NCBI GenBank assembly: GCA_036567125.1
Contig: DATCVD010000807.1
Coordinates: 1-50,461 of the forward strand
Direction: 5' to 3'
DNA from: Pyrinomonadaceae bacterium
GTDB taxonomy: Bacteria; Acidobacteriota; Blastocatellia; Pyrinomonadales; Pyrinomonadaceae
Length of the DNA stretch: 50,461 nt
Shown here in pieces: positions 7,571 through 28,218 of the stretch. The notes below the pieces were generated by a model, which saw nothing but the letters and a program-made list of their open reading frames with translations, was not told the origin of the DNA and did not search any database. Both the position numbers and the translations under genes were made by a program. Numbering within the stretch: position 1 is the stretch's first letter; each line of letters begins with the position of its first letter.

Positions 7571-7609
7571 AATCGAGGAGGTAAGGGACGGCCGCACGGT
7601 GCGCGCCGT

Positions 7610-8512: not shown

Positions 8513-8588
8513 CTATTTCGTGTGCTCACTAGGTTAGCGACCGGCCGCGCGGGCCGTCAAGAAGTGCGGCCGCCCGTGTTCGTGTCAG

Positions 8589-8629: not shown

Positions 8630-8634
8630 GCGGG

Positions 8635-10272: not shown

Positions 10273-10490
10273 GTGCCCCTCCCGTAGGTGTGACGTTAAC
10301 CGACACGGCTTCCCAGCTTCGGTCAGCGTGGAAGTCACGCGAGCGACGGCCTGCACTCCAGAAGTGCCGGCCGCGATGATTCCGCGGGGATTCAACGACT
10401 TTTACGGACTATAATTTCGGCCTCAATCTCGCCCTTTTGACGAAGAGGAGAAATCGGCTAAGGACAGAACACAGGGAGCGTAGAATTAGA

Positions 10491-10503
10491 TTGGTTTAAC
10501 CAA
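10491..10503. promoter_or_regulatory. Candidate GntR-type operator upstream of the PL1 gene
   Basis: Perfect palindrome TTGGTT-T-AACCAA in the AT-rich 10273-10750 spacer. Weaker sites: AGGTATAACCA at 10701-10711 and half-site TAACCAAT at 10674-10681. Confidence 0.45.
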
Positions 10504-10750
10504 ATATCGATTAAAAACCGACGAAATGGCCCGGCGAGGAAGCGAGCGGCCTGAAGTTGACGACCGGTCCAAAAGACAGATTTCTTAATTCAAAGCTGCG
10601 GACAAGAAAATGTAAGGGGTTTGGGGGGTCTTCTTATGCCACAAGAAGTCTTGTGCGTCAAGAGAATTTTTCTTAACCAATAAACGGACTTGGCTTAAAA
10701 AGGTATAACCAAGATTCTGCCGTTTAGTCGAAATACTTCGGCGCCTCAGG

Positions 10751-11788: not shown

Positions 11789-11815
11789 GCTCTTTTCACC
11801 TGCGCGCAGCCGGGA

Positions 11816-13290: not shown

Positions 13291-13307
13291 GCCTTGGCCC
13301 TTCCGTT

Positions 13308-14972
13308 CTATGGCTTCTCGAACCTGAACCAGTCCACGTCCGCGTAGCCGGTCTCGCGCGTCCCGCCCGTGCGGACGGCGAAGAGGCCGACCTTCGCGCC
13401 GATCCACTTGCCCTTGCGTGCGGTGAACTTCGGGCCGACAGGCGTGAATGTCTTCCCGTCCGCGCTGAAGCTGAAGTCGCAGGCCGCGCCGTCCGTCACC
13501 TTAACGCGCAGGTACAAAGTGTTTCCGCCGATTGGCCGCGGCTGACTCTGCGTGCCCCTCGATCCGCCTTCCGCGTCCTTCACGACTGTCTGAGAGACGA
13601 AGAGACCTTCGGGCAGCTTCCTGACAGAGACGTAGGCGTAGTCGAGGCCCATCACGATGAGGCCCGTCTCCTCGCCGTCCGTGCGCGGCGTGAAGGTCAC
13701 TTTGGTCGTCGCGGTGAACTCCGGCGCGGGGAATTTTTGTAAGAGCAGGTTCGGCACGTCCCAGAAATTCTTATGACCTTCGGGGAGCGGCACGTTGAAA
13801 AGGCGCAGGAAGCCGAGAGCGGGCGCGGGGAAGGCCCAGTGCGTGCCGGGGTTGGCGTGCCACTGCCACTGGAGGCCGAGCCGCGGCGCGTCGAACTCGT
13901 CAGAGTCGGGCGGCGTAATGACGGGCCACGAGGCACGCCCGACGTTCGGCTTCCTGAAAGTCAACACCGGCTCGCCCGTGCCGTCGCCGTCCGCGTCCGC
14001 GCCCATCACGGGCCAGTCGTTCGCCCAGCGAACGGGCTGGAGGTGCACGACGCGGCCATAAGCGCCCTTATCCTGAAAGTGTACGAACCACGACTCTCCC
14101 GTCTGCGTCTCGACCCACGCGCCTTGGTGCGGCCCGTTGATCGCGGTACGCCCTTGCGCGAGCACGATCCTCGCTTCGTACGGGCCGTAGACGTTCCTTG
14201 AGCGCAGCGCCAGTTGCCAGCCCTGCTCGACGCCTCCGGCCGGCGCGAAGATGTAGTAGTAGTCGCCGCGCTTGTAGAACTTCGGGCCTTCGAGCGTCGG
14301 GTGCTTGTCGTGGCCGTCGAAGACGATCACGCCGTCGTCGAGCAGCCGCGTGCCGTCGGCGCTCATGCGGCTCACTACGAGGACGCTCTTGACGCCTGAG
14401 CGGCTCGCGGCCATCGCGCTCACGAGGTAGGCGCTACCGTCCTCGTCCCACAGCGGGCAGGGATCGATCCAGCCCTTCGCCTCTTTGACGAGCACGGGTT
14501 CAGACCACGGCCCCGCGGGGTGCTTGGCCTTCGTCAGGTAGATGCCGAAGTCCGGATCGGGGTAGTAGATGTAGAACTCGCCGTTGTGGTGGCGGATCGA
14601 GGGGGCCCAGACGCCGTTGCCGTGTTGCGGGCGGCCGTAAACGTCGAGGGGCCGCTGGCGCGCGAAGACGTGAGTGACGAGACGCCAGTTGACGAGGTCT
14701 TTGGAGTGGAGGACGGGGAGGCCCGGCGCGGCGTTGAAACTCGACGCCGTCATGTAGAAATCGTCGCCCACGCGGACGGCGTCCGGGTCGGAGTAGTCGG
14801 CGTGGAGGATCGGATTTCTGTACGTGCCGTCGCCGTTGTCGGCCACCCAGACTTCGGAGACGGGGCCGGCGGAATTTACCGGGGACGGTGTTTGCGCGGG
14901 GGAGTGGGAGGGGAGGCAGACCAGTGTCAGGATGATGGCGGCTCTTAGCGATGCGAGGCTGCTGCGCTTCAT
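13308..14972 (-). CDS. GH43 family glycoside hydrolase (beta-xylosidase / alpha-L-arabinofuranosidase type) with a C-terminal beta-sandwich domain
   Basis: YRNPILHADYSDPDAVRVGDDFYM, GVWAPSIRHHNGEFYIYY, WIDPCPLWDEDG and LEGPKFYKRGDYYYIF match the GH43 five-bladed propeller. Start chosen at the ATG at 14972 (MKRSSLASLRAAIILTLV.. signal peptide). The GTG at 15005, overlapping the kduD stop, is the alternative. Confidence 0.85.
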   Translation of the reverse strand: MKRSSLASLRAAIILTLVCLPSHSPAQTPSPVNSAGPVSEVWVADNGDGTYRNPILHADYSDPDAVRVGDDFYMTASSFNAAPGLPVLHSKDLVNWRLVTHVFARQRPLDVYGRPQHGNGVWAPSIRHHNGEFYIYYPDPDFGIYLTKAKHPAGPWSEPVLVKEAKGWIDPCPLWDEDGSAYLVSAMAASRSGVKSVLVVSRMSADGTRLLDDGVIVFDGHDKHPTLEGPKFYKRGDYYYIFAPAGGVEQGWQLALRSRNVYGPYEARIVLAQGRTAINGPHQGAWVETQTGESWFVHFQDKGAYGRVVHLQPVRWANDWPVMGADADGDGTGEPVLTFRKPNVGRASWPVITPPDSDEFDAPRLGLQWQWHANPGTHWAFPAPALGFLRLFNVPLPEGHKNFWDVPNLLLQKFPAPEFTATTKVTFTPRTDGEETGLIVMGLDYAYVSVRKLPEGLFVSQTVVKDAEGGSRGTQSQPRPIGGNTLYLRVKVTDGAACDFSFSADGKTFTPVGPKFTARKGKWIGAKVGLFAVRTGGTRETGYADVDWFRFEKP

Positions 14973-15001
14973 CGGTCGCGTGTGTCTCGGCGGTCGCGCG
15001 C

Positions 15002-15763
15002 TCACCTGCCCAGCCAGCCGCCGTCGACGACGAGCACGTGCCCGTTGACGTAGTCGCTCGCCGGCGAGGCGAGGAAGACGGCCGCGCCGGCCAAATCATC
15101 CGGCTCGCCCCAGCGTCCGGCCGGGATGCGTTCGAGTATCTGCCGGCTGCGCGTCTCGTCCGCGCGAAGTACGGCCGTGTTGTCGGTGCTCATGTAGCCG
15201 GGCGCGATGGCGTTGACGTTGACACCCTTCGCCGCCCATTCGTTGGCGAGCGCCTTGGTCAGCTGCGCGACGCCGCCCTTCGACGCGGCGTAGGCCGGGA
15301 CGTTGATGCCCCCCTGGAACGAGAGCAGCGACGCGACGTTGACGATCTTCCCTCGCCCGCGTTCGATCATGTGCCGGCCCGCGAGCTGCGACAGGCGGAA
15401 GACTGACGACAGGTTGACCTCGACGACGGCGTCCCAATCTTCTTCGGAATACTCGACCGCCGCCGAGCGGCGGATCGTGCCCGCGTTGTTGACGAGGATG
15501 TCCAGGCGGCCGAACTCTTCGAGCGTCCGCCCGACGATCTCGCGCGGCGTCTCCTTGTCCGCGAGATCGCCCGCGACCGGCAGCGACCGGCGGCCCGCCC
15601 GCCCGACGCGCTCGCAGGTCGAATCGGGCGAGCGCGAGTTGCCGTGGCACGCCACGTCCGCGCCGGCCTCCGCGAGCGCAACGGCGACGGCCGCCCCCAG
15701 CCCCGCAGAAGCCCCCGTCACGAGTGCCACGCGGCCGTCGAGCCTGAACTTATCGAGAATCAT
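15002..15763 (-). CDS. kduD: 2-dehydro-3-deoxy-D-gluconate 5-dehydrogenase (SDR)
   Basis: Matches remembered E. coli KduD along its full length: MILDKFRLDGRVALVTG.., NVASLLSFQGGINVPAYAASKGGV, NAIAPGYMSTDNT, IPAGRWGEPDDL, DYVNGHVLVVDGGWLGR. Confidence 0.9.
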   Translation of the reverse strand: MILDKFRLDGRVALVTGASAGLGAAVAVALAEAGADVACHGNSRSPDSTCERVGRAGRRSLPVAGDLADKETPREIVGRTLEEFGRLDILVNNAGTIRRSAAVEYSEEDWDAVVEVNLSSVFRLSQLAGRHMIERGRGKIVNVASLLSFQGGINVPAYAASKGGVAQLTKALANEWAAKGVNVNAIAPGYMSTDNTAVLRADETRSRQILERIPAGRWGEPDDLAGAAVFLASPASDYVNGHVLVVDGGWLGR

Positions 15764-15770
15764 GTGAATT

Positions 15771-15857
15771 GAAGCTGTTAGCTGTTAGCCAGACAGGATC
15801 GGCTTTCAGCTTTCGCGTGAGTTTTGGTTTTTGGTTTTGCTAACAGCTAACAGCTTC
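15771..15857. repeat. Heptamer-hairpin intergenic repeat, copy 1
   Basis: Perfect 19-bp inverted repeat GAAGCTGTTAGCTGTTAGC (15771-15789) / GCTAACAGCTAACAGCTTC (15839-15857). The 49-nt spacer contains TTTTGGTTTTTGGTTTT. It fills the 96-nt kduI-kduD spacer. Confidence 0.9.
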
Positions 15858-15859
15858 CC

Positions 15860-16699
15860 TCAGTCTTTCACCGCTTCGAGGCCGGAGCCGCCCGCGGCGA
15901 AATCGGGCTGCACGTTGACGACGCCGTACTTGCGATCCTCGCCCTCGCGCATGGCCGCCATCATCCACATGAAGTTGATCTGCCCGCCGGGCGCGGAGAC
16001 GTTAGGGTGATAGCCTTTAGGCATCAGCACCACGTCGCCCTCGCGCACGACCTGCACCAGCTCCGGGTCTTCCGGGTTCGTGTAGACGAACTGCACGCCG
16101 AACGACGGCGCGGGCATGTCGATGTAAAGGTAAGCCTCTTCGAGCATCCGCGAGTGCTCGTGCGGCGGCCACGATGTCCAGTTGCCGGGGCGCGAGAAGG
16201 TGACGCCGGTCATGATGCGCCCGGCCTTGACGTTGCTGCCGATGAGCACGTTCATGTCGCGCTCGGCCGGGGGCGCGCCCGCAATGATGTGCAGCTTCGG
16301 GTTCTCTCTCACCTCCGCGAACGAGACGAACTGGATGGGATAGCGCCCCTCGACCGGCGCTGACAGCTCCGCTAGATCGCAACCGTCCTCCGCCGCCGGG
16401 CGGACTTCGATCCGCGAGTCGCGCGGGACGTAGAGCGCGTCGTAGCGGCCGAGTTTGAAGGTCTCCCCGCCGGTCGCGATTTCGGCCGCGCCCTTCAGGC
16501 AGACGAGGCCCGTCTCGTGCGTGCCGTTCTCGAACGCCAACGCGTCGTCGCCCGCTCCGAGCGTGACGCGCCCGTAGTGGAGGTAGCGCGCGGCCGTCCG
16601 GCCCGGCGCGACGGCCGTCCGCCGACCGCGCCCTTTGTGCGTGGCCGGCACGTAACAGGTCTCTTTCGTGATCTCTTGCTGCTTCTGCTCCGCCTGCAT
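15860..16699 (-). CDS. kduI: KduI/IolB-family sugar-acid ketol-isomerase (likely 5-keto-4-deoxyuronate isomerase by context)
   Basis: GNWTSWPPHEHSRMLEEAYLYI ... MPKGYHPNVSAPGGQINFMWMMA resembles the IolB-type branch of the KduI/IolB cupin family. It lies directly upstream of kduD. Confidence 0.75.
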   Translation of the reverse strand: MQAEQKQQEITKETCYVPATHKGRGRRTAVAPGRTAARYLHYGRVTLGAGDDALAFENGTHETGLVCLKGAAEIATGGETFKLGRYDALYVPRDSRIEVRPAAEDGCDLAELSAPVEGRYPIQFVSFAEVRENPKLHIIAGAPPAERDMNVLIGSNVKAGRIMTGVTFSRPGNWTSWPPHEHSRMLEEAYLYIDMPAPSFGVQFVYTNPEDPELVQVVREGDVVLMPKGYHPNVSAPGGQINFMWMMAAMREGEDRKYGVVNVQPDFAAGGSGLEAVKD

Positions 16700-16784
16700 G
16701 ATGCTCCCTCCCCCGTCAGTGTAGAACTCCTGCCAGTGTCCGGCCTCCGCCGCGATCCCTGCCGCGCGTTTCAGGACGCGAATG

Positions 16785-18254
16785 TCACGGCGCGAATGTC
16801 GAGGTCAGGAAGCCATCCACGGCGACCTCCATCGCGCCGCCGAGCCCGGCCCCTTTGGGTTCGCCCGGCTCGACCGACCAGCCTTCGAGCTTGCCGGCCA
16901 TCCCCTGCGACACCGCCTCGTTTAGCGGCCCGCTGATGAACTTCCACCCCTCGACTATGCGCCCGCTCACTATCACGCGCGGGACGCCGAGGCCGACGAT
17001 GACGTTCCCGATGCCGATGCCCAGATACTCTCCGAGGCGCTCCAAAGTCCTGCGCGCCCTGAGATCGCCCGCCTCCGCGCGCCCCACGATTTCGACGTAG
17101 CGTGGGGGCTTCTCGCTTCCCAATCTTACCCGTTCACCCGTGTAGAGCGGGCCTGCGGCCGAGGCCGCGGCGTAACGCTCCCAGCAGCCGCGGTTGCCGC
17201 AGGCGCAGGGTTTGCCGCCCGCCACGATGGTCATGTGGCCGAACTCCCCGGCGATGCCCTGCCCCTTGCCGACGCCCCTGTAAACCTCGCCGCCGAGAAC
17301 CAGCCCGACGCCGATCCCCGTGCCCGACCTGACGAGCACGAAGTTGTTGAGTTGCCGTCGGTCGTCCCCGCGCAGCCGCAGTCGGGCCTCGTAGAGCGCG
17401 GCCGCCGTGGCGTCGTTCTCGACGACGACCCGCACGCCGTCGAACGAGAGCGCGTCGGAGACGGGCACGTCATGCCAGCCCAGGTGCGGCGCGTAGAGCA
17501 GGCGGCCCCGGTCGGCGTCCGTGAACCCAGGCAGGCTCACGCCGATGGCGCGCAGCCTGCGCCCGCCGTGCTCTCCGAGAGAAAGTTTTTCGACTGACGC
17601 CCGCACGAGTCGTAGCGCCTCGGTCGGAGCGGGCGGGGTGTCGAACTCCTCCTCGCCTAAAACCTCGCCGCCTAAGTCGGCAACTCCGATCTGCGTGCGA
17701 CGGACGCCGATGCTCACGCCGACGAAGAGATCGCGGTCGCTGTTGAACCGCAGCCCCGCGGCCGGACGGCCCAGGTTGCGGCCCGCGCCGGGTCCCTGCT
17801 GGATCGAGTCTTCGAGCACGACGCCGGCCGCGACGAGCGGCTTGAAGATGTCGGTGACGGTGCTCCGGTTGAGACCGAGACGGCGCGCCAGATCGGCGCG
17901 CGAGATCGGCTGTGCGGCACGGAGCAACCTCAGAAGCGCGCGTGCCGCCCCGACGGAACTTCCGTGATCGCCCGAACCCTTGAGGGGGTGCGAAGTCGTG
18001 ACCAAGACGCCGTCCACGGCATCGCCCCGCGGGATGCCCGCCGGGGAGCGAGACGCGGCGGCCCCATCTCCGGGGATCAGGTTCTTCCTCGCGCTTACCT
18101 CGACCGTGTGCCCCTTAACGTAACCCAGCTCGGACGCGGCCCGCTCGACGCGCGCGCGCGTGGTGGGCGAAACCGGGCGCGCGTGGTTGATGGCGTTAGA
18201 GGCGGTCGCGACCGATACGCCCGCCAGTTCCGCGACATCTCTCAGCGTGGGCAT
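16785..18254 (-). CDS. ROK-family transcriptional regulator with an additional N-terminal LacI-type HTH
   Basis: aa 2-46 TLRDVAELAGVSVATASNAINHARPVSPTTRARVERAASELGYV looks like a LacI/PurR HTH. aa about 103-145 ARALLRLLRAAQPISRADLARRLGLNRSTVTDIFKPLVAAGVV is a ROK repressor winged helix. The ROK sugar-binding domain follows, with ENDATAAAL and the Zn motif GHM..CACGNRGCWE. Confidence 0.8.
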   Translation of the reverse strand: MPTLRDVAELAGVSVATASNAINHARPVSPTTRARVERAASELGYVKGHTVEVSARKNLIPGDGAAASRSPAGIPRGDAVDGVLVTTSHPLKGSGDHGSSVGAARALLRLLRAAQPISRADLARRLGLNRSTVTDIFKPLVAAGVVLEDSIQQGPGAGRNLGRPAAGLRFNSDRDLFVGVSIGVRRTQIGVADLGGEVLGEEEFDTPPAPTEALRLVRASVEKLSLGEHGGRRLRAIGVSLPGFTDADRGRLLYAPHLGWHDVPVSDALSFDGVRVVVENDATAAALYEARLRLRGDDRRQLNNFVLVRSGTGIGVGLVLGGEVYRGVGKGQGIAGEFGHMTIVAGGKPCACGNRGCWERYAAASAAGPLYTGERVRLGSEKPPRYVEIVGRAEAGDLRARRTLERLGEYLGIGIGNVIVGLGVPRVIVSGRIVEGWKFISGPLNEAVSQGMAGKLEGWSVEPGEPKGAGLGGAMEVAVDGFLTSTFAP

Positions 18255-18383: not shown

Positions 18384-19970
18384 CTACAGCGAGACCGTCT
18401 GCTCCGCCCAGAACTGAAACTCGCGGTGCTTGTGCTCCTCGGCCTTCGCCTGAACCTCGCCGCTCGCCACGCGGCGGACGTGCTCGAAGACGCGCGCGCC
18501 CACCTCGTCAATCGTCTCCGTCCCGTCGATGACGTTGCCCGCCGAGAGATCGAGGTCGCGCGACATGCGCTCGAAGACGGGGTTGTTCGAGGCCAGCTTG
18601 ATGACGGGTGCGATGGCGTTTCCGATTGTCGTCCCGCGCCCCGTCGTGAAGACGACGACGGTCGCGCCCGCGGCGACGAGGCCCGGCGTCGACTCCTGAT
18701 CGTAGCCCGGCCCCTGCATCAGGTGGAGGCCCCTGCCCCGCGGCACTTCGGCGTACTCGACGACGCCCTCGACGCGCGTCGTCCCGGCCTTCGCCATCGC
18801 GCCTAAAGATTTGATCGTGATGTTGAGCAGCCCGCCCGCGATGTTGCCGGGGCTGGGGTTCTGGTTGAGCACGGCCCCGAACTTCGAGGCGTACTCCTTG
18901 TACCAGTCGATCATGCGGTAGATCGCGCGGCCCGTCTCGGCGTCCTTCGCGCGGCTCGCGATCAGGTGTTCCGCGCCGCAGAACTCCGGCACTTCCGTAA
19001 TCAGCACAGTCCCGCCGTGGCGGATGAGCGTGTCGGCCGCGCGACCCAGAGAGGGGTTCGCCGAGATGCCCGAAAAACCGTCCGAGCCGCCGCACTTGAC
19101 GCCGAGGACGAGTTCGCTCACGGGCAACTCCTCGCGCTCGACGCGGTTCACATCCGGGAGCATCCGCTCGACCTCACGCAGTCCGCGCTCGATGGCGGCC
19201 TGCGTGCCGCCGATCTCCTGAATGCCGATCTTGGCGACCGGCTTGTCGAACTTCTTGTCGTGGCCGAGCAGGTACTTTTCGACCTTCGCGAGGTTCGTCT
19301 TCTCGCAGCCCAAGTCCATCAGAATCACGCCGCCGACGTTCGGGTGGTCGGCGTAGTTCGAGAGCGTGCGGAGCATCACGTCGATGGTCGAGCCGTCCTG
19401 GCAGCCGCAGCCCTTGTTGTGCGGGATGGCGACGACGCCGTCCACGTTCGGGTAACGCTCGCGCTTGTAGTGTAGGAACTCCGACATCATCGAAATCTGC
19501 TGCGCCTCGTGGCTCGCGCACATCGAGGTCGGGACGATGAGGACGTAGTTGCGGGTGCCGACGCGGCCGTCCGGCCGGCGAAAGCCGCGGAAGGTGGCGC
19601 GCTCCTGAGCGGGGACGTAGTCGGGCGGAGGCGTCGAGAGGTCTTCGGGCAGGTCGCGCACGACCGGCACTTCGTCCGTCATGTTCGCGTGCGAGATGTA
19701 CTCGCCCTCGCCGATGCCGAGGCTCGTGCCGATGGGCTGGCCGTACTGGAGGACGAACTCGCCCGCCGGGATGGCGCGCGTGGCGAAGCGGTGGCCGGGC
19801 GGGACTGTGTCCTTGATTTCGACGACGCGCCCCGAAGGGAGCGCGACCGCCAGGCCGGGCGAGGTCTCGCGCTTGACGACCGCCAGGTTGTCTTCCGGGC
19901 TGACGATGATGGCGTAGTCGCTGACCGGCGCGGCCTGCGTGGTGGTGCTCGACATTCTCGTTCTCTTCAC
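18384..19970 (-). CDS. uxaA: Altronate dehydratase (UxaA/GarD family: SAF domain plus dehydratase domain)
   Basis: Colinear with remembered E. coli UxaA: NLAVV..GHRFATRAI, VGTRNYVLIVPTS, HNKGCG, LGCE, KCGGSDGFSGISANP, LITEVPEFCGAEHL, NPSPGNIAGGL, TGRGT. The start may be the GTG at 19970 or the ATG at 19955. Confidence 0.88.
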   Translation of the reverse strand: MKRTRMSSTTTQAAPVSDYAIIVSPEDNLAVVKRETSPGLAVALPSGRVVEIKDTVPPGHRFATRAIPAGEFVLQYGQPIGTSLGIGEGEYISHANMTDEVPVVRDLPEDLSTPPPDYVPAQERATFRGFRRPDGRVGTRNYVLIVPTSMCASHEAQQISMMSEFLHYKRERYPNVDGVVAIPHNKGCGCQDGSTIDVMLRTLSNYADHPNVGGVILMDLGCEKTNLAKVEKYLLGHDKKFDKPVAKIGIQEIGGTQAAIERGLREVERMLPDVNRVEREELPVSELVLGVKCGGSDGFSGISANPSLGRAADTLIRHGGTVLITEVPEFCGAEHLIASRAKDAETGRAIYRMIDWYKEYASKFGAVLNQNPSPGNIAGGLLNITIKSLGAMAKAGTTRVEGVVEYAEVPRGRGLHLMQGPGYDQESTPGLVAAGATVVVFTTGRGTTIGNAIAPVIKLASNNPVFERMSRDLDLSAGNVIDGTETIDEVGARVFEHVRRVASGEVQAKAEEHKHREFQFWAEQTVSL

Positions 19971-20010: not shown

Positions 20011-20949
20011 TTAGGCTTCCAGCACGTCCGGCAGGATGAGCGACCTGACGTTCGGGTGGAGCCTCAGCCAGAGGCCGGGGTTTTCGTCCGCCTGCCGCGC
20101 GCGCTCCGCAGGGTCTTCGGAGATTTCGGTTTCGAGCACGCGGCGGTAGCTCGCGCGCTTGGCCGGGGCGGTCGAGGCGTCAACGATGGACTGCACGACG
20201 CGGCCCGCGCCGAGGATCGCCGCGGGCCCCAGCGTCAGGATGTGCGTGGCCGCGCGGCACTCGGCCTCGTCCCGTTCGGTGACTGCGCTCCCGCCGACCT
20301 TAAACTTGTTGATGTGGTGTTCGAGGATGCTCGCGGAGATCGGGATCACGCCCGCGACATCGCTGGCAGTCGCGCCCGACCCCGGCTTGATGTAGGCGAG
20401 GTGCGAGGCCGCGCCCGCTTCGGGGCCGAGGCCGAGGAAGAAGATGTCTATGCCGCCGAGGCGTTCGAGCCGTTCGAGGTAGCCGACGAGTCCCGCTTCC
20501 AGGTCGTCCGTGTCGGTCAGCATCGGCGTAAAGCTCTTCACCTTACGGAAGAAGGCTTCGCCCAGCAGCCGCTCGAAGTCGCGGACGAAGCTCAGGCCGT
20601 TGTCCATGCGCATCGGCGCGAGCGCGTCCTGCGTGAAGACGTGCAGGCGGCCGAGCAGCGCGTCTTCCGTCGTGCCCCCGGCCAACTCGCCAAGGACGCG
20701 GTACATGGCCTGCGCCCCGCGGCCGCCGAGCAGGATGATGACGAGGTCGCCCTCCTTCTCGCGCGCCGCCCGGCGAAGCTCCCCGAGCTGCTCGCGCCCC
20801 ACGGCGTCTTCGCTCCCCAGAACTTCGTAGTCGAGCTCCCGCGGGCGCAGCCGCGCAACTGCCTCCAAATGATCGGCCCTGCCGTGCGAGAGCCAGACGT
20901 TATCGCCCGCGGTGCGCCGCACGATGGACTGCGTGTTAGGAGCTGACAC
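20011..20949 (-). CDS. NagB/6-phosphogluconolactonase-superfamily sugar isomerase-like protein, function unknown
   Basis: VIILLGGRGAQAMY and FFLGLGPEAGAASHLAYIKPGS resemble the (GG..) and (G.G.DGH.A) motifs of the glucosamine-6-P isomerase / lactonase fold. Start moved to the GTG at 20949 (AGGGGA upstream). The track start TTG at 21027 sits inside a regulatory palindrome. Confidence 0.6.
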   Translation of the reverse strand: MSAPNTQSIVRRTAGDNVWLSHGRADHLEAVARLRPRELDYEVLGSEDAVGREQLGELRRAAREKEGDLVIILLGGRGAQAMYRVLGELAGGTTEDALLGRLHVFTQDALAPMRMDNGLSFVRDFERLLGEAFFRKVKSFTPMLTDTDDLEAGLVGYLERLERLGGIDIFFLGLGPEAGAASHLAYIKPGSGATASDVAGVIPISASILEHHINKFKVGGSAVTERDEAECRAATHILTLGPAAILGAGRVVQSIVDASTAPAKRASYRRVLETEISEDPAERARQADENPGLWLRLHPNVRSLILPDVLEA

Positions 20950-21025
20950 TCTTATTCCCCTGACAAATTCATAACGGCCCGGATGCCCGATTGCAATAAA
21001 GACCAGATGGCACTTTCGGATTGTC

Positions 21026-21046
21026 AAGAATGGTTAGACCATTCTT
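21026..21046. promoter_or_regulatory. Candidate GntR-type operator in the divergent NagB-like/uxaA and SDR/TRAP promoter region
   Basis: Perfect 9+3+9 palindrome AAGAATGGT-TAG-ACCATTCTT. Confidence 0.5.
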
Positions 21047-21190
21047 AAATTGAAGAGTGAATTTTTACCATGAGTTGACTAATAATGCAAGGCGTATTGT
21101 GGACATATTATGGATATATTAAGATATTAAGGCTATTTGAGGCTTGACAAGATAATCGTCTTGGTGTTACATACCAACCGCCCGATCTTT

Positions 21191-21203
21191 AATTGGTTTA
21201 ACC
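21191..21203. promoter_or_regulatory. Candidate GntR-type operator upstream of the SDR gene, next to a sigma70-like promoter
   Basis: AATTGGTTTAACC. Just upstream are TTGGT-GTTACAT-ACCAA (21161-21177) and a possible promoter TTGACA (21144-21149) - 17 nt - TTACAT (21167-21172). Confidence 0.4.
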
Positions 21204-21351
21204 TTCTAAGGCGCAGCCCGCTCGGATTCCCATCTGGTCGGGCGAAGGTTTAAGCCTAGTCGTATTCGGCCCGACCGACATTTGGAAGACCACGTCCTGC
21301 CGCGGTTGGCCGGCGGCCAGCCCAGAGCCATCTTAAATAAGGAACCGCGCA

Positions 21352-22128
21352 ATGACTTATAAGCCTTTGGAGTTAGACGGCAAAGTGGCTGTCGTCGTTG
21401 GCGGCACTTCAGGGATCGGAAGGGCGATAGCGCACGGCTTGGCCGCCGCCGGCGCGGACGTCGTCCCCACCTCACGGCGCGAGGAGCAGGTCGATGCGGC
21501 GGCGCGGGAGATCGAGGCCATCGGCCGCAGTTCGTTGCGCGTCGCCTCGGACGTTTCCGACCGCGCCTCCCTCCAGCGCGTCCTCGACGAGACCGTCCGC
21601 GCCTTGGGCAAGGTAGATATCTTGGTCAATTCCGCGGGCAAGACGAAGCGCGCGCCCACGCTCGACTTCGCCGAAGAGGACTGGGCCGACATCATCGAGA
21701 CGAACCTGACGGGTACGCTGCGCGCCTGCCAGGTCTTCGGCCGCCACATGCTGGAGCGCGAATACGGCCGCATCATCAACATCGCGTCGCTCTCCACCTT
21801 CGTCGCGCTCTACGAGGTGGCGGCCTACTCGGCGAGCAAGGCGGCCGTCGCCTCGCTCACCAAGTCGCTCGCGGTCGAGTGGTCGCCGCGCGGAGTCAAC
21901 GTCAACGCCATCGCGCCCGGCGTCTTCCGCACCGCGCTCAACCAGAAGCTGCTGGACGAGACCGAGCGCGGCCGCGAGTTCCTGACGCGCACGCCGATGA
22001 AACGCTTCGGCCGGGTCGAGGAGTTGGCGGGCGCGGCCGTCTTCCTCGCCTCCGACGCGGCCAGCTTCGTCACCGGCGAGATTCTGGCCGTGGACGGCGG
22101 CTTCCTCGCGAGCGGGGTGAATCAGTGA
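21352..22128 (+). CDS. Short-chain dehydrogenase/reductase (gluconate 5-dehydrogenase-like); candidate uronate-pathway reductase
   Basis: GKVAVVVGGTSGIGRAIA (Rossmann), NSAG, YSASKAAV (YxxxK), NAIAPGVFRT, PMKRFGRVEELAGAAVFLASDAASFVTGEILAVDGG. Confidence 0.85.
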   Translation: MTYKPLELDGKVAVVVGGTSGIGRAIAHGLAAAGADVVPTSRREEQVDAAAREIEAIGRSSLRVASDVSDRASLQRVLDETVRALGKVDILVNSAGKTKRAPTLDFAEEDWADIIETNLTGTLRACQVFGRHMLEREYGRIINIASLSTFVALYEVAAYSASKAAVASLTKSLAVEWSPRGVNVNAIAPGVFRTALNQKLLDETERGREFLTRTPMKRFGRVEELAGAAVFLASDAASFVTGEILAVDGGFLASGVNQ

Positions 22129-22131
22129 GAG

Positions 22132-22304
22132 GAAGCTGTTAGCTATTAGCTATTAGCTGCTGGGGCACGGCAGGCGCCGAGCCGCGAGTTGAGCGGTGAG
22201 TAGCAACATTGAGAAGCTGTAACCCGCATGGTTGCAGGCAAGGCGCAGGGTTGAAAACAGGTATTCACCTTACTTCCTTCTGAAAGCTAACCGCTAACAG
22301 CTTC
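22132..22304. repeat. Heptamer-hairpin intergenic repeat, copy 3 (long spacer)
   Basis: Left arm GAAGCTGTTAGCTATTAGCTATTAGCTGC (22132-22160); right arm GAAAGCTAACCGCTAACAGCTTC (22282-22304). The outer 12 bp pair perfectly. The spacer is about 120 nt. It fills the SDR-M24 spacer and ends 4 nt before the ATG at 22309. Confidence 0.85.
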
Positions 22305-22308: not shown

Positions 22309-23430
22309 ATGCCCAACGCCGAGATCGCGGAGAAGATTGAGAGGCTCATGCGGGCAATGCGCGCGGAGGCTCTGGGCGGCGTGCTCGTGGGCGCGCAGCA
22401 CAACTTCTCCTGGCTGACGGCGGGCGCGTCGAACGGCATCGATCAGAGCCGGGACGCCGGCGCGGGCGCGCTGCTCGTGCGCGCCGACGGCCGCCGCTTC
22501 GCCCTCGCCAGCCGCATCGAGATGCCGCGCCTGCTCGCCGAGGAGGTTTCGACAGAGGAGTTCGAGCCGGTCGAGTTCGCGTGGGAGGAGGAGAAGGCGT
22601 CGCCGACGTTTCTCGCCGACCGCGCACGACGGCTTATCGCCGGTAACACCGTGCTGGGTTCCGATCTTCCGGCCGGCCCTGACGCGCGGGTAGTCGAAGG
22701 GCTGATCTCGCGGTGCAGGTATCAACTCACCAGCCCGGAGCTTGAAAGATACGGGCAACTCGGCCGCGACGCGGGTGAGTCAGTGGGCCAACTGGTCAGG
22801 AGCCTTTCGCCCGGCCTGACCGAGTCGGAGGTGGCCCGGCGGGTTTCGGACGCGCTGGCCGCGCGCGGCATCCGCGCCGTGGTGAACCTCATAGCGGCCG
22901 ACGAGCGGATTGAAAAGTTTCGCCATCCTGTGCCGACTGACAGACGCTGGGAGCGCGTCCTGATGGTGGTCGTCTGCGCGCGGCGCGCGGGGCTTGTCGC
23001 CTCATTGACGCGGATCGTCTGCGCCGGCCCCGTGCCGGGGGAACTGAGGCGGCGGGCTGAGTCTTGCGCGCGCGTCAACGCGCGGCTGTTGGCCGCGACA
23101 CGGCCGGGCGCGACCGGCGCGGAGATCTACGAGACGGCGGCGCGCGCTTACACGGACGAAGGTTTCGCGGGCGAGGAGCGTTTGCACCACCAGGGCGGCG
23201 CGGCCGGATACCGCACGCGCGACTGGGTGGCGCACCCTGCCTCGACGGAAGCGGTTCACGCCGGGCAGGCGTTCGCGTGGAACCCATCGATCACGGGCGC
23301 GAAGGTCGAAGAGACGTGTCTCGCCTTTGAAGACGGCGTGGAAGTCATCTCCGCCTCCCCCGGCTGGCCTCAGATCATAAGCGTGCTCGACGGCCGCGAG
23401 TACCGATCCCCCGACGTGCTGAAACTGTAA
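22309..23430 (+). CDS. M24 (creatinase/prolidase-fold) family protein, possibly catalytically divergent
   Basis: Creatinase_N-like N-terminus, then a pita-bread-fold C-terminus (..LHHQGGAAGYRTRDW.., NPSITGAKVEETCLAFEDGVEVIS). Confidence 0.65.
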   Translation: MPNAEIAEKIERLMRAMRAEALGGVLVGAQHNFSWLTAGASNGIDQSRDAGAGALLVRADGRRFALASRIEMPRLLAEEVSTEEFEPVEFAWEEEKASPTFLADRARRLIAGNTVLGSDLPAGPDARVVEGLISRCRYQLTSPELERYGQLGRDAGESVGQLVRSLSPGLTESEVARRVSDALAARGIRAVVNLIAADERIEKFRHPVPTDRRWERVLMVVVCARRAGLVASLTRIVCAGPVPGELRRRAESCARVNARLLAATRPGATGAEIYETAARAYTDEGFAGEERLHHQGGAAGYRTRDWVAHPASTEAVHAGQAFAWNPSITGAKVEETCLAFEDGVEVISASPGWPQIISVLDGREYRSPDVLKL

Positions 23431-23498: not shown

Positions 23499-24506
23499 GT
23501 GAAAGGTTGGAATCTCGTCTTCCTGCTGCCGCTCGCCATCCTAGCCTACGGCTTTTATGTCGGCCTTTCTTCGCCGGTCGAGCAGGCCAAGGTCATACGG
23601 CTCGGCCACATCCTCAACCAGTCGCACCCCGTCCACAAGGCCATGCAGTTCATGGCCGAAGACCTGGAGAAGCGTTCGGGCGGGCGGCTGCGGATGGAAA
23701 TCTACCCGGACGAGCAGCTCGGCCCGGAGCGCGAGCTGATCGAGATGTTGCAGGTCGGGAGCCTCGGCATGACGAAGGTCTCGGCCGCCGTGCTCGAAAA
23801 CTTCTCGCCGCAGATCACGGTCTTTTCGCTTCCCTACCTGTTCCGCGACCGCGACCACTTCTGGAAGGTGATGGACGGGCCCGTCGGCGAGGAACTGCTC
23901 GACGTGTCGCTCCCGTTCAACCTGAAGGGCGTCGCCTACTACGACGCGGGCGCGCGCAGCTTTTACGTCAACAAGAAGGCGGGCCGCGCGGTGCGCCGGC
24001 CCGAAGATTTGCACGGCCTCTCGATCCGCGTCCAGAAGAGCAAGTCGGCGGTGCGGATGGTCGAGGTGCTCGGCGCCAACCCCGTGCCGCTGCCCTTCGG
24101 CGAACTCTACTCGGCGCTCGACACCGGCACTGTTGACGGGGCCGAGAACAACCCCCCGTCGCTCCAGACCTCGAAGCAGTACGAGGTCTCTTCGACCTAC
24201 AGTCTCGACGAGCACACGCTCGTCCCCGACCTCCTCATCATGAGCCTCGACACGTGGAACCGGCTGACCGAGGAAGAGCGGCGATGGGTGAAGGAATCGG
24301 CCCACGCCTCCTCGCTCCGCCAGCGCGAGTTGTGGCAGCAGGCCGAAGCAGAGGCGATGGCCGAGATGGAGCGCGCCGGACTCAAGATCGTTAATGACGT
24401 GGACAAGGAAGCCTTCCGCCGCAAGGCCGCCGCCATGTACAAGGACGCCGACTACCAGACCCCGCAGATTCAGGAGTTGATCCGGCGCATTACGGAGACG
24501 CGGTAG
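23499..24506 (+). CDS. dctP: TRAP transporter substrate-binding protein (DctP family)
   Basis: GTG start; N-terminal membrane anchor or signal. IRLGHILNQSHPVHKAMQFMAEDLEKRSGGRLRMEIYPDEQLG and GAENNPPS are typical DctP-family features. Confidence 0.85.
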   Translation: MKGWNLVFLLPLAILAYGFYVGLSSPVEQAKVIRLGHILNQSHPVHKAMQFMAEDLEKRSGGRLRMEIYPDEQLGPERELIEMLQVGSLGMTKVSAAVLENFSPQITVFSLPYLFRDRDHFWKVMDGPVGEELLDVSLPFNLKGVAYYDAGARSFYVNKKAGRAVRRPEDLHGLSIRVQKSKSAVRMVEVLGANPVPLPFGELYSALDTGTVDGAENNPPSLQTSKQYEVSSTYSLDEHTLVPDLLIMSLDTWNRLTEEERRWVKESAHASSLRQRELWQQAEAEAMAEMERAGLKIVNDVDKEAFRRKAAAMYKDADYQTPQIQELIRRITETR

Positions 24507-24517
24507 AGGGGAACCTA

Positions 24518-25066
24518 ATGGAAGTCATCAGAGTCGTTAACCGCCAACTCGAATACGCGCTGCGCGTCGTCCTCGTCCTCCTGCTGACGGTGATGACGCT
24601 GACGGTCGTCTGGCAGGTGCTCTCGCGCCTGCTCGCGAAGGCGACGGTCGCCTACGGCCTGCCGCTCCTCATCGAGCCGAGCCGCTGGACGGAGGAGATG
24701 GCGAGCTTCCAGCTCGGCTGGCTCGCGCTGCTCGGCGCGGCCTACGCCCTGCGCAAGCACGAGCACCTCGGCTTCGACTTCATCTACCTGAAGATGACGC
24801 CCGCCGGGCAGCGCCGGACGGAGCTGTTCGTGCGCGCGCTCGTCATCATCTTCTCGCTCACGGTGCTAGTCTACGGCGGGTCACGCCTCGTGCTGATGAC
24901 CTTTCAGCTAAAGCAGACCACGGCCGGGCTACAGTGGCCGATGGCGGTCATCTACGCCGTCATCCCTGTGAGCGGCCTGCTGATGGCGATCTTCGCCGTC
25001 GAGGGCGTCTTCGCCCCCGGCGAGTCGCAACTCGAAGAGGGGCAGGTCGAGGAGGCGGCGCTATGA
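24518..25066 (+). CDS. dctQ: TRAP transporter small permease (DctQ family)
   Basis: 182 aa with four predicted hydrophobic helices; position between DctP and DctM; ATGA overlap with the next gene. Confidence 0.8.
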   Translation: MEVIRVVNRQLEYALRVVLVLLLTVMTLTVVWQVLSRLLAKATVAYGLPLLIEPSRWTEEMASFQLGWLALLGAAYALRKHEHLGFDFIYLKMTPAGQRRTELFVRALVIIFSLTVLVYGGSRLVLMTFQLKQTTAGLQWPMAVIYAVIPVSGLLMAIFAVEGVFAPGESQLEEGQVEEAAL

Positions 25067-26388
25067 CAATCGCGGTACTGACGGGCGTCTTCATCCTCCT
25101 GCTCTTCCTGAGAGTGCCCATCGCCTTCTGCATCGGGGCGAGCGCGCTCTGCGCGATGCTCGTCAGCCTCCCGTTCGATCCGAGTGCCATCACCATCGCG
25201 CAGCGCGTGGGGACGAGCATCACCAGCTTCACGCTGCTCGCCATCCCCTTCTTCGTGCTGGCCGGGCGGCTGCTCGCTACCGGTGGCGTCGCGCGCCGCC
25301 TCATCGACTTCGCGGTCGTGACCGTGGGCTTCCTGCCGGGCGGCCTCGCCGTGACGAACGTGCTGGCGAACATGCTCTTCGGCGCGGTTTCCGGCTCGGC
25401 GGCGGCGGCGGCCTCCGGCATCGGCGGATTCATGATCCCGGCGATGGAGGAGAAGCGTTACCCGAAGGAGTTCGCCGCGGCGCTGACCGTGACCTCGGCG
25501 ACGACGGGGCTGCTCATCCCGCCGAGCAACGTCTTCATCGTTTACGCGATGGTGGCGGGCGGCGTCTCGGTCGGCGCGCTCTTCGTCGCGGGCTACCTGC
25601 CGGGCATCCTCCTCGGGCTCGCGCTGATGGGCATCGCCGTCGTCGTGACGCAGAAGAACGGCTACGGGGTGCGTACGCCCGCCCCGACCCTGCGGCAGTT
25701 CGCCCGGAGCCTGTTCGGCGTCATCCCCACCATCCTGATGCTCATCCTCGTGATGGGCGGCATCGTGACGGGGTTCTTCACGGCGACCGAAGCGTCGGCC
25801 ATCTCCGTGGTCTACGCCTTCGCGCTCTCGATGTTCTACTACCGCGAGGTGAAGTGGCGCGATCTGCCGCAGATTCTCGTCGAGACGGCCTCGACGACCG
25901 GCATGGTCTTCCTCCTCATCGGCACTTCCATCGCGATGGCGTGGATCTTCGCCTACGCGAACGTCCCGCAGTTCATCGACACCTTCATCCGCGGCGTGAG
26001 CAGCAACCCCATCATCATCCTGCTGATCATCAACCTGATCCTGCTGGCCGTCGGCACCTTCATGGACATGACGCCGGCCATCCTCATCTTCACCCCCATC
26101 TTCCTCCCCATCGCCCAAGACCTCGCGCCGGCGCTCGGGACGACCCCCGAGCTGATGAAGTACCAGTTCGGCATCATCATCGTCTTCAACCTCTGCATCG
26201 GGCTGTGCACGCCGCCCGTCGGCACGGTGCTCTTTATCGGGTGCGGCATCGCGAAGATATCGATCACGCGGATCATCCGGCCGCTCATCCCGCTCTTCGT
26301 CGCCGCCGGCGTCGCGCTGCTGCTCGTCACCTACGTTCCGTGGCTGAGCACCTGGCTGCCGCGCGACGTCTTCAAAATGATCAAGTGA
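25063..26388 (+). CDS. dctM: TRAP transporter large permease (DctM family)
   Basis: Start at the ATG at 25063 (MTIAVLTGVFILLLFLRVPIAF..), overlapping the dctQ stop. The track ORF from 24934 is an in-frame read-through. Polytopic membrane protein with typical DctM N-terminus and length (441 aa). Confidence 0.88.
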   Translation: MTIAVLTGVFILLLFLRVPIAFCIGASALCAMLVSLPFDPSAITIAQRVGTSITSFTLLAIPFFVLAGRLLATGGVARRLIDFAVVTVGFLPGGLAVTNVLANMLFGAVSGSAAAAASGIGGFMIPAMEEKRYPKEFAAALTVTSATTGLLIPPSNVFIVYAMVAGGVSVGALFVAGYLPGILLGLALMGIAVVVTQKNGYGVRTPAPTLRQFARSLFGVIPTILMLILVMGGIVTGFFTATEASAISVVYAFALSMFYYREVKWRDLPQILVETASTTGMVFLLIGTSIAMAWIFAYANVPQFIDTFIRGVSSNPIIILLIINLILLAVGTFMDMTPAILIFTPIFLPIAQDLAPALGTTPELMKYQFGIIIVFNLCIGLCTPPVGTVLFIGCGIAKISITRIIRPLIPLFVAAGVALLLVTYVPWLSTWLPRDVFKMIK

Positions 26389-26424: not shown

Positions 26425-27525
26425 ATGGCCGACTTCAAGATCAAAGACAAGAGCGACTGCCGCTGGGATTGCGTCTCGCTGGGCGAGGTGATGCTCAGGC
26501 TCGATCCCGGCGACGCGCGCGTCCACACGGCGCGGGAGTTCCGCGCCTGGGAGGGCGGCGGCGAGTACAACGTCGCGCGGGGCCTGAAGCGCTGCTTCGG
26601 CTTGGAGACCGCGGTCGTCACCGCGCTCGCCGACAACCCCGTCGGCCGGCTTGTGCAGGACTTGATCTATCAGGGCGGCGTCGATCAGTCGCACGTCCTC
26701 TGGCGTAAGTACGACGGCGTCGGGCGCGAGGTCAGAAACGGCCTCAACTTCACCGAGCGGGGTTTCGGCGTGCGCGCGGCTCTTGGGTGCTCCGACCGCG
26801 GCCATACGGCCGTCTCGCAGCTCCGGCCCGGCGACATCGACTGGGAGAAAATCTTCGGCCGCGAGGGCGCGCGCTGGTTCCATACCGGCGGCATCTTCGC
26901 CGCGCTCTCGGAGACGACGCCCGCCGTCGCCCGCGAGGCGATGCAGGCGGCCGAGCGACACGGCACGGTCATCTCCTACGACCTGAACTACCGCGAGAGC
27001 CTGTGGAAGGGCGTCGGCGGCAAGGCCCGCGCGCAGGAGGTCAACCGGGAGCTCGCGCGCTACGTGGACGTGATGATCGGCAACGAGGAGGACTTCACGG
27101 CCTGCCTCGGCCTCGAAGTCGAAGGGCTGGACGAGCACCACTCTAAGTTGGACGTCGCCAACTTCCGCAAGATGATCGAGCGCGCTGTTTCAGAGTTCCC
27201 GAACTTCAAGGTAGTCGCCACCACGCTGCGCAACGCGAAGACGGCCACGGTCAACGACTGGGGCGCAGTCTGCTACGCCGGCGGCGAACTCTACCAGGCG
27301 CAGACGCGCGCTGAATTAGAGATCTTCGACCGCGTCGGCGGCGGCGACTCGTTCGCCTCTGGGCTTATCTACGGCTTCCTGGCGAATAAAGGCCCGCAGT
27401 GGGCGGTCGAGTGCGGCGCGGCCCACGGAGCGCTGGCGATGACCACGCCGGGCGACACGACGATGGCGACGCTCCCCGAGGTCGAGCGCGTGATGAAGGG
27501 CGGCGGCGCGCGCGTCGCGCGGTGA
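26425..27525 (+). CDS. kdgK: 2-dehydro-3-deoxygluconokinase (PfkB family)
   Basis: PfkB signatures: GEVMLRLDP, GGEYNVARGL, DRVGGGDSFASGLIYGFL. Lies between the TRAP genes and eda. Confidence 0.85.
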   Translation: MADFKIKDKSDCRWDCVSLGEVMLRLDPGDARVHTAREFRAWEGGGEYNVARGLKRCFGLETAVVTALADNPVGRLVQDLIYQGGVDQSHVLWRKYDGVGREVRNGLNFTERGFGVRAALGCSDRGHTAVSQLRPGDIDWEKIFGREGARWFHTGGIFAALSETTPAVAREAMQAAERHGTVISYDLNYRESLWKGVGGKARAQEVNRELARYVDVMIGNEEDFTACLGLEVEGLDEHHSKLDVANFRKMIERAVSEFPNFKVVATTLRNAKTATVNDWGAVCYAGGELYQAQTRAELEIFDRVGGGDSFASGLIYGFLANKGPQWAVECGAAHGALAMTTPGDTTMATLPEVERVMKGGGARVAR

Positions 27526-27552
27526 GTGCACAAAAGTTGTCGGGAGTGCTTG

Positions 27553-28218
27553 ATGAATAAGCAGGAAGTCTTAAAGCGCATCAGTGAGGTCGGCGTGGTG
27601 CCAGTCGTGCGCGCGTCCTCGCCGGAAGAGGCGATGCAGGTCGTCGACGCGATCAAGGAGGGCGGTGTGCCCGTCCTCGAAATCACGATGACGGTGCCAC
27701 GAGCCGTGAGGGTGATCGAGCAGTTGGCGCACCGTTACGGCTCCGAGGTCATCATCGGCGCGGGGACGGTGCTCGACCCCGAGACTGCGCGCGCGTGCAT
27801 CCTCGCCGGGGCCGCCTTCGTCGTCAGCCCCGCGCTCAACACGGCGACGATCGAGTTGTGCCGGCGCTACTCGGTCGCTTGTATGCCCGGCGCGCTCACC
27901 CCGACCGAGGTGGTGACGGCGTGGCAGGCCGGCGCGGACGTGGTCAAGGTCTTCCCCTGCGGGGCGCTCGGCGGCGCGAAGTACCTGAAGTCCTTGAAGG
28001 CCCCGCTGCCGCAGATCGAGATGATCCCGACCGGCGGCGTCTCGCTCCAGACCGCGGCCGAGTTCATCGAGGCCGGGGCACTCGCGCTCGGCGTCGGGGC
28101 AGACCTCGTGGACACGAAGGCCATCCGCGCGGGCAAAGCGCGGAAGGTGACGGAGGCTGCACGGGCCTACGTCGCCGCCGTGAGAGCCGCCCGTGGCGGC
28201 GGCCCGCAGCAGATGTGA
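27553..28218 (+). CDS. eda: KDPG / KHG aldolase
   Basis: VVPVVRASSPEEAMQVVDAIKEGGVPVLEITMT, GAGTVL, FVVSP, PGALTPTE, VKVFP and IPTGGV match Eda. Start at the ATG at 27553 with GGGAG 6 nt upstream. Confidence 0.9.
   Translation: MNKQEVLKRISEVGVVPVVRASSPEEAMQVVDAIKEGGVPVLEITMTVPRAVRVIEQLAHRYGSEVIIGAGTVLDPETARACILAGAAFVVSPALNTATIELCRRYSVACMPGALTPTEVVTAWQAGADVVKVFPCGALGGAKYLKSLKAPLPQIEMIPTGGVSLQTAAEFIEAGALALGVGADLVDTKAIRAGKARKVTEAARAYVAAVRAARGGGPQQM

Follow-up and report, generated by a model that had tools for sequence, protein, structure and literature searches.

In the classical isomerase route for D-galacturonate, UxaC, a TIM barrel of the amidohydrolase superfamily (PF02614), converts galacturonate into tagaturonate, and in E. 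coli its gene immediately precedes one of the UxaA family. The long-chain reductase UxaB and the epimerase UxaE both use tagaturonate as their substrate (PMC6353982). Non-orthologous replacement has been seen in this pathway before, in the UxaE/UxaD system of Thermotoga maritima (Rodionova et al. 2012, cited in PMC6353982), and Thermotoga retains UxaC. Here we describe a stretch of 50,461 nucleotides, called the window, from a metagenome-assembled Pyrinomonadaceae genome (Acidobacteriota; assembly GCA_036567125.1, contig DATCVD010000807.1; 900 contigs, 88.6% complete). It carries a pectin-utilisation locus in which a gene for a protein resembling NagB (glucosamine-6-phosphate deaminase/isomerase) occupies a position like that of uxaC. 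This NagB-like gene lies directly upstream of a UxaA/GarD-family dehydratase gene and is divergent from a gene for a short-chain dehydrogenase/reductase (SDR). We propose, with a probability of roughly one half, that the classical route may be run here with two non-orthologous enzymes, the NagB-like protein in place of UxaC and the SDR in place of UxaB. The observations are of gene content, fold, residue conservation and co-occurrence, and each catalytic step is predicted from them. The genes that enter the argument are as follows.

20011-20949, minus strand: NagB-like protein with NagB/6-phosphogluconolactonase (6PGL) fold, 312 amino acids, first gene of its operon (sub-threshold Pfam match, AlphaFold2 model and Foldseek)
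18384-19970, minus strand: dehydratase of the UxaA/GarD family, 528 amino acids (Pfam GD_AH_second and GD_AH_C)
20950-21351: AT-rich divergent promoter region with two palindromes
21352-22128, plus strand: classical SDR, 258 amino acids, divergent from the NagB-like gene (Pfam)
22309-23430, plus strand: M24-like (pita-bread fold) protein (Pfam; most metal ligands lost)
23499-26388, plus strand: TRAP transporter DctP, DctQ and DctM
26425-28218, plus strand: 2-keto-3-deoxygluconate (KDG) kinase (KdgK, PfkB family) and 2-keto-3-deoxy-6-phosphogluconate (KDPG) aldolase (Eda)
28316-29083, minus strand: GntR/FCD-family regulator
15860-16699, minus strand: KduI/IolB-family cupin, of the unsaturated-uronate route and a rival isomerase candidate
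15002-15763, minus strand: KduD, of the unsaturated-uronate route

The SDR operon has the order SDR, M24-like gene, TRAP dctPQM, kdgK and eda. Gene calls and Pfam matches agree here with the sequence-only reading of the window, which had placed a divergent SDR at the head of a TRAP-kdgK-eda operon. Close homologues of the window's proteins come from metagenome-assembled genomes of Pyrinomonadaceae and Blastocatellia.

Canonical isomerase and reductase

The sequence-only reading had also noted that canonical uxaC and uxaB are missing from the window, and this extends to the genome, in which neither UxaC (PF02614) nor the two Mannitol_dh domains of UxaB-type enzymes were found. Of 121 genomes sampled from the family, one has UxaC. 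Because single-contig, closed genomes are among these, its absence is not an assembly gap. A search of five high-quality relatives, including three with single-contig assemblies, likewise gave no Mannitol_dh_C. The NagB-like protein has no PF02614 match, its alpha/beta fold is unrelated to the UxaC barrel, and its likeness to UxaC is one of proposed function only, namely the same reaction at the same position in the pathway. We found no description of a NagB-type uronate isomerase, or of uxaC in Acidobacteria, in the literature searched.

Outside the family, UxaC is present in 11 of the 12 Acidobacteriota genomes that have a high-scoring UxaA-type gene. The presence of UxaC alongside UxaA outside the family, and not inside it, is a signature of non-orthologous displacement.

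The NagB-like protein

The open reading frame at 20011-21027 on the minus strand (338 amino acids) is a real gene, whose likely start is a GTG at 20949 that gives a product of 312 amino acids. This start is favoured because it is preceded by a Shine-Dalgarno-like AGGGGA and because homologues are 303-321 amino acids long. The stop codon lies 40 nucleotides before the dehydratase start, which agrees with the earlier description of a protein of about 312 amino acids directly upstream of the dehydratase, and both motifs named in that description, LLGGRG and GLGPEAGAASHLA, are present in the protein.

The protein's match to Pfam PF01182 (Glucosamine_iso) scores 21.6 bits (E 2e-4), below the gathering score of 27, and the protein has no NCBIfam match; a precomputed PF01182 match is present on some close homologues. 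A sequence search of the PDB returned marginal NagB matches only, and a search of the ESM Atlas only the protein's own clusters. An AlphaFold2 model (predicted local distance difference test score 87, predicted template modelling score 0.88) gives clearer matches, of which the top ones in Foldseek are NagB structures (2bkv, 5hj5, 1dea and others, E ~1e-13; template modelling scores 0.64/0.81). Second come 6-phosphogluconolactonases, at E ~1e-9. By this model the protein has the three-layer alpha/beta fold of NagB and 6PGL, bearing out the fold proposed from the motifs.

Despite the common fold, the protein shares only 14-21% identity with NagB, and it is extended by about 45 residues at the N-terminus, with four residues inserted ahead of the His of the active site. 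The catalytic residues of E. coli NagB are Asp72, Asp141, His143 and Glu148, of which His143 is the ring-opening residue, and Arg172 and Lys208 are ligands of the 6-phosphate. A profile alignment to this enzyme by hhalign (probability 59%, E 1e-4) gives the following pairs.

NagB Asp72 and D108: kept
NagB Asp141 and E177: conservative change, E177 being invariant across the NagB-like family
NagB His143 and H183: kept
NagB Glu148 and K188: changed
NagB Arg172 (phosphate ligand) and S221: changed
NagB Lys208 (phosphate ligand) and T235: changed

Within the main clade of the family, D108 and H183 hardly vary, and the GGRGA loop contains a nearly invariant Arg, R77. This pattern fits an isomerase or a ring-opening enzyme whose substrate is an anionic sugar without a phosphate, and it is common ground for isomerase and lactonase, between which it does not discriminate. 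The protein would resemble NagB in converting an aldose to a ketose after ring opening, and would differ from it in that its likely substrate is a non-phosphorylated uronate and in that no deamination takes place.

Clustered at 50% identity, the full-length members of the NagB-like family among 1.84 billion representative proteins fall into only three clusters, and the same search yielded no canonical NagB or Pgl at significance. Species-representative genomes contain 372 relatives, the best 80 of which are all from Blastocatellia or other Acidobacteriota. Annotation pipelines label the family 6-phosphogluconolactonase or glucosamine-6-phosphate deaminase. The former enzyme (Pgl/DevB) has the same fold, with the weaker of the two structural matches; however, neither a glucose-6-phosphate dehydrogenase gene nor other genes of the pentose phosphate pathway occur in the context of the NagB-like gene.

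The dehydratase and the SDR

The dehydratase scores above the Pfam thresholds with GD_AH_second (135 bits) and GD_AH_C (323 bits). It had been labelled uxaA, which stands as far as the UxaA/GarD family is concerned; clear UxaA orthology does not, as the protein is about as far from E. coli UxaA (242 bits, 33% identity) as it is from E. coli GarD (6u7l; 302 bits). It does not pass the cut-off of the GarD equivalog TIGR03248 either (348 bits, cut-off 730.85). We regard it as a candidate altronate dehydratase, predicted to yield KDG.

Dehydratase orthologues with 70-77% identity also occur in two genomes apart from any NagB-like gene or SDR (L037 in G096 and L038 in G022). One of them adjoins genes for a sigma-54 response regulator and a histidine kinase, and the other an isochorismatase-family gene. 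Given these lone orthologues, the dehydratase may have a second role.

Pfam finds no Mannitol_dh domains in the SDR, a classical short-chain enzyme that is unrelated to the long-chain family of UxaB. Its nearest solved relatives are gluconate 5-dehydrogenases, which are hexonate 5-dehydrogenases, and KduD. With the NCBIfam model of D-mannonate oxidoreductase, NF006132, it scores 235.6 bits, which does not pass the cut-off of 281. Tagaturonate is 5-keto-altronate, and its reduction is the same type of reaction as that of a hexonate 5-dehydrogenase. Because of these relatives and of its strict coupling to the dehydratase, the best reading of the SDR is that of a tagaturonate reductase analogous to UxaB. 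Like UxaB and the SDR-type hexuronate reductases (NF006132, Bacillus YjmF type), it would then reduce a 5-keto-hexonate. The same role had been suggested from the window, and both the coupling and the relatives fit it well; the SDR is a candidate for it.

Conservation of the gene neighbourhood

The sequence-only reading had proposed looking for co-occurrence and a conserved neighbourhood of the NagB-like and dehydratase genes, and both exist. In the 121-genome family sample, the NagB-like gene is present in 39 genomes, a dehydratase orthologue in 39, and both in 36. A gap of -3 to 88 nucleotides separates the two genes in 51 loci, and the SDR is present in 47 of these as well. The tallies of the NagB-like gene, the dehydratase, the M24-like gene and the cupin in this sample include the unpublished genomes G017 and G032, and the UxaA/UxaC tallies of the wider phylum include the unpublished genome G197; no conclusion rests on these three. 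Among 65 species loci with sufficient flanking DNA, the arrangements are distributed as follows.

47 of 65 loci: divergent SDR upstream and dehydratase directly downstream of the NagB-like gene
13 of 65 loci: neither SDR nor dehydratase at the NagB-like gene
4 of 65 loci: dehydratase only at the NagB-like gene
1 of 65 loci: SDR present, and dehydratase 514 nucleotides off the NagB-like gene

Since 47 loci have both genes and 13 have neither, the SDR and the dehydratase constitute one module, whose two genes have been gained, lost and moved jointly. Inside the family, the NagB-like gene almost never occurs together with UxaC. An MFS transporter replaces the TRAP transporter in most relatives, and the GntR/FCD regulator is kept in nearly all orthologous loci.

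The shared promoter region contains two palindromes, GAATGGT-TAG-ACCATTC at 21028-21044 and TTGGT-N7-ACCAA at 21161-21177. It had been described as operator-bearing, and the core of the former palindrome, TGGT-N3-ACCA (21031-21041), indeed recurs in 71 of 73 orthologous upstream regions, also where the locus has no SDR or UxaA. The window contains three TGGT-N3-ACCA sites, compared with 0.23 expected by chance. The other two lie upstream of the gene for a PL1 lyase (10492-10502) and upstream of an operon for an outer-membrane barrel (41027-41037), and the conserved palindrome thus links the NagB-like/SDR promoter with pectinase promoters. The GntR/FCD regulator is probably the protein that binds this predicted operator.

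A second branch with a UxaE-like gene

G066 and G108, which belong to a single genus and are each 97% complete, contain the NagB-like gene, and neither a GD_AH-family gene nor an SDR orthologue was found in them. Their NagB-like genes are, like their neighbours, under purifying selection, with a ratio of non-synonymous to synonymous substitution rates (dN/dS) of 0.14 at a dS of 0.97. Retention of the gene without the dehydratase was at one point taken as a refutation of a role that depends on UxaA. That view was dropped when a UxaE-like operon was found in these genomes, and the retention became support.

The operon shares the pectin locus with the NagB-like gene, about 20 kb away, and its four genes encode a UxaE-like epimerase, an SDR, a PfkB kinase and a LarA-like protein (L053:8209-12851 in G066; also L054, L139-L168 and L041). 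The SDR encoded next to the UxaE-like gene in G066 passes the cut-off of D-mannonate oxidoreductase NF006132 with 351 bits, and would catalyse a sister reaction to the proposed reduction of tagaturonate. The best match of the LarA-like protein is a "nickel-dependent putative hexonate epimerase". A check of five genomes, among them two that have the UxaE-like operon, turned up no UxuA. This second route may lead to a phosphorylated hexonate, and the operon may represent an undescribed galacturonate route via mannonate and hexonate epimerisation.

In the 121-genome sample, three genomes have the NagB-like gene without the dehydratase (G006, G066 and G108); each of them carries the UxaE-like gene, and in G006 a NagB-like gene is directly upstream of it. 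The UxaE-like gene is also found in 11 of 12 further species that have a NagB-like gene and no adjacent dehydratase, as opposed to 3 of 17 typical ones. In a sample of 401 genomes, 36 of the 37 with a UxaE-like gene, which represent 8 genera, have the NagB-like gene. A full-length, Thermotoga-type UxaE occurs in a single genome of the family sample; this genome, which lacks the NagB-like gene, is also the sample's sole carrier of UxaC.

Since UxaB and UxaE both consume tagaturonate, the NagB-like protein appears as the constant partner of two tagaturonate-consuming branches, in the absence of UxaC. Both branches start from tagaturonate, and we therefore place the protein at the step from galacturonate to tagaturonate. 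The system differs from that of Thermotoga in lacking UxaC and in having a NagB-fold gene as its constant companion. It also differs in that the UxaE-like protein is shorter than full-length UxaE, covering Pfam positions 74-473, and in that its gene is followed by those for a PfkB kinase and a LarA-like putative hexonate epimerase.

Proposed pathway and alternatives

In the proposed pathway, GH28 enzymes would free galacturonate, which the TRAP transporter, or an MFS transporter in relatives, would take up. The NagB-fold protein would open the pyranose ring and convert the aldose to the ketose D-tagaturonate, using the Asp and His aligned to catalytic residues of NagB, and the C6 carboxylate of the uronate would occupy the site that holds the 6-phosphate in NagB. 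Tagaturonate would be reduced to D-altronate by the SDR, and altronate would be dehydrated to KDG by the UxaA/GarD-family enzyme, after which KdgK and Eda would complete the route. Sister lineages would have the UxaE-like epimerase and the SDR-type mannonate oxidoreductase in place of the SDR and the dehydratase, with the NagB-fold gene kept. An isomerase role for the NagB-like protein, first put forward from the window, is plausible. It is supported by a specific comparative pattern, in which the gene tracks either the SDR and UxaA or the UxaE-like gene and its SDR, and avoids UxaC; the catalysis itself is predicted. We give somewhat less than an even chance to the broader idea that the family is a new class of hexuronate isomerase, in which the sugar-phosphate isomerase/lactonase fold has been re-tooled. 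The class would provide entry to two routes in Blastocatellia, one from the SDR through UxaA to KDG and the other from the UxaE-like epimerase through the SDR-type mannonate oxidoreductase and PfkB to the LarA-like protein.

Several observations weigh against the proposal. Glu148 of NagB is replaced by K188. Two distant homologues of the NagB-like protein (P0124 and P0126; 41-47% identity) each lack one member of the Asp/His pair, and both are found in unrelated gene contexts. The genomes are related to one another, so counts such as the 36 genomes with both genes are not independent events and overstate the number of such events. In one genome (G092), the SDR-dehydratase module stands alone, and the NagB-like gene is elsewhere, near genes for a GFO oxidoreductase, a LarA-like protein, KduD and KduI. 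Another (G096, 98% complete) has the dehydratase orthologue, and the NagB-like gene was not found in it. A genome of a different family in the same class (G198) has the NagB-like/UxaA pair as well as UxaC, which weakens strict exclusivity. The higher score of the dehydratase with GarD than with UxaA belongs here too, as do two findings on the cupin. The KduI/IolB cupin accompanies the NagB-like gene in 38 of 39 genomes, mostly in the same locus, and the KduI of E. coli has been reported to aid in converting galacturonate and glucuronate (PMC3578941).

These last findings raise the possibility that the cupin is the real uronate isomerase, acting on both galacturonate and 5-keto-4-deoxyuronate, and that the NagB-fold protein is an accessory such as a ring-opening enzyme or an anomerase. 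An accessory role would suit the ring-opening function of NagB His143, and the window's cupin scores higher with IolB (5-deoxy-glucuronate isomerase; 106 bits) than with KduI (54 bits). However, the cupin is distributed more widely than the tagaturonate modules, with at least seven genomes having it while the UxaA orthologue, the UxaE-like gene and the NagB-like gene are all missing. It also coexists with UxaC in G073 and is mostly paired with KduD, as an ordinary KduI would be. The UxaA and UxaE-like genes are tracked by the NagB-like gene and not by the cupin, and we consider the cupin unlikely to be the isomerase. Another way to dispense with a NagB-type isomerase is a reductive, fungal-like route, in which the SDR would reduce galacturonate to L-galactonate for dehydration by the UxaA-family enzyme, and the NagB-fold protein would act elsewhere in uronate metabolism. 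Watanabe et al. (2019, doi 10.1111/mmi.14259, cited in PMC13406643) are said to have described UxaA-family enzymes promiscuous for L-galactonate, L-fuconate and D-arabinonate. It is on this reported promiscuity for L-galactonate that the reductive route rests, and the separate SDR-dehydratase module of G092 is compatible with it. By stereochemical reasoning, though, the product, 2-keto-3-deoxy-L-galactonate, would have the opposite configuration at C5 to KDG, the substrate of KdgK and Eda. Moreover, the closest relatives of the SDR are hexonate 5-dehydrogenases, and the tracking of UxaA and UxaE-like genes by the NagB-like gene would be left unexplained; the route has a small chance of being correct.

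The combination of a dehydrogenase, a lactonase and a dehydratase is a classic gene trio, and an oxidative route would use it in full, with the SDR converting galacturonate to galactaro-1,5-lactone, the NagB/6PGL-fold protein acting as lactonase and the dehydratase being GarD. The structural match to 6-phosphogluconolactonases, the scores of the dehydratase (302 bits with GarD, 242 with UxaA, and a GarD model as its sole NCBIfam match) and the divergent GFO/IDH/MocA oxidoreductase gene next to the NagB-like gene in G092 all agree with this, and lactonases of the oxidative uronate route are known, namely UxuL and UxuF (PMC6353982). On the other hand, neither a KdgD orthologue nor a GarL-type aldolase, which the route would use, was found in the window's genome, and the five high-quality relatives have no KdgD above the cut-off. 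We downgraded the oxidative route on these grounds. In addition, the operon partners kdgK and eda use KDG and not keto-deoxyglucarate, the dehydratase is far under the GarD cut-off (348 versus 731 bits), and a lactonase has no place beside the UxaE-like/mannonate oxidoreductase operon, with which the NagB-like gene is kept after loss of the SDR and dehydratase. The oxidative route thus has a very small chance. Finally, the NagB-fold protein could be a passenger in the locus that still acts in the manner of NagB or Pgl on a sugar carrying a phosphate or an amino group, for instance as an amino-uronate deaminase. This is what the names given to the family by the pipelines and the conserved Asp and His of the NagB pair would lead one to expect, but the residues at both phosphate-ligand positions have changed and the Pfam match is below threshold. 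The gene also heads a conserved hexuronate operon behind an operator that is conserved at 71 of 73 species loci, and a passenger role is hardly probable.

Pyrinomonadaceae and other Blastocatellia are abundant soil bacteria, and standard annotation leaves their pectin loci seemingly incomplete, with the isomerase and the reductase missing, so that metabolic models would call them unable to use galacturonate. If the isomerase reading is true, this gap is closed for several hundred species, given the 372 relatives in species-representative genomes, and a widespread annotation as 6-phosphogluconolactonase is corrected. A second uronate isomerase, structurally unrelated to the first, would join the enzyme repertoire, and a fold for phosphorylated sugars would prove re-targetable to a carboxylate sugar. 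The analysis also points to an uncharacterised branch of hexuronate catabolism with UxaE-like and LarA-like proteins.

Other features of the locus

Further genes of the locus include the following.

11816-13000, minus strand: GH28 enzyme
34389-35837: GH28 enzyme
16785-18254, minus strand: regulator with a LacI-type helix-turn-helix (HTH), a second, winged HTH and a ROK domain
35941-37110, minus strand: pectic acid lyase (Pfam Pec_lyase, PF09492)
37219-40875, minus strand: TonB-dependent-type outer-membrane barrel, 1218 amino acids, upstream of the Pec_lyase gene on the same strand

The minus strand also encodes pectinesterases, the PL1 pectate lyase and a GH43 enzyme. Beyond eda lie genes for the GntR/FCD regulator, a GH88 enzyme, a GFO oxidoreductase, a GDSL esterase, the second GH28 enzyme, Pec_lyase and the outer-membrane barrel. 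Two GH28 enzymes had been noted in the window, and these are the two listed. The KduI-KduD-KdgK-Eda route described there is confirmed for KduD, KdgK and Eda; its KduI is a KduI/IolB-family cupin that is closer to IolB. We rejected, as the main reading, the idea that the NagB-like protein replaces KduI: of the 39 genomes that have the NagB-like gene, 38 also encode a cupin, whereas those in which the cupin occurs with neither UxaA nor UxaE-like genes lack the NagB-like gene.

The M24-like protein has lost four of five prolidase metal ligands and, by its sequence, is not a peptidase. Its gene adjoins that of a hexuronate transporter in most loci, including that of the UxaC genome. It was considered as an isomerase, which is unlikely in view of its absence from seven genomes with the NagB-like/UxaA pair and its coexistence with UxaC in G073. 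The spacer between the SDR and M24-like genes (22132-22304) opens with tandem AGCT-rich heptamers (AGCTGTT, AGCTATT, AGCTATT) and closes with their complement, forming a long hairpin.

The different uronate locus to which the NagB-like gene has been relocated in G092 (L023, contig C14, ~3850-17640) encodes a heparinase II/III-like lyase, an amidohydrolase, a beta-helix protein and an esterase, together with the GFO oxidoreductase, the LarA-like protein, a KduD paralogue and a second-type KduI-like cupin. In the window, two plus-strand open reading frames in 35875-37902 have no Pfam match and are spurious, the real gene being the minus-strand Pec_lyase. The architecture of the regulator encoded at 16785-18254, between the dehydratase and KduI-like genes, is unusual in combining a double HTH with a sugar-kinase-like ROK domain. 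An IS66-family transposase gene (48711-50291, minus strand) marks the edge of the locus.

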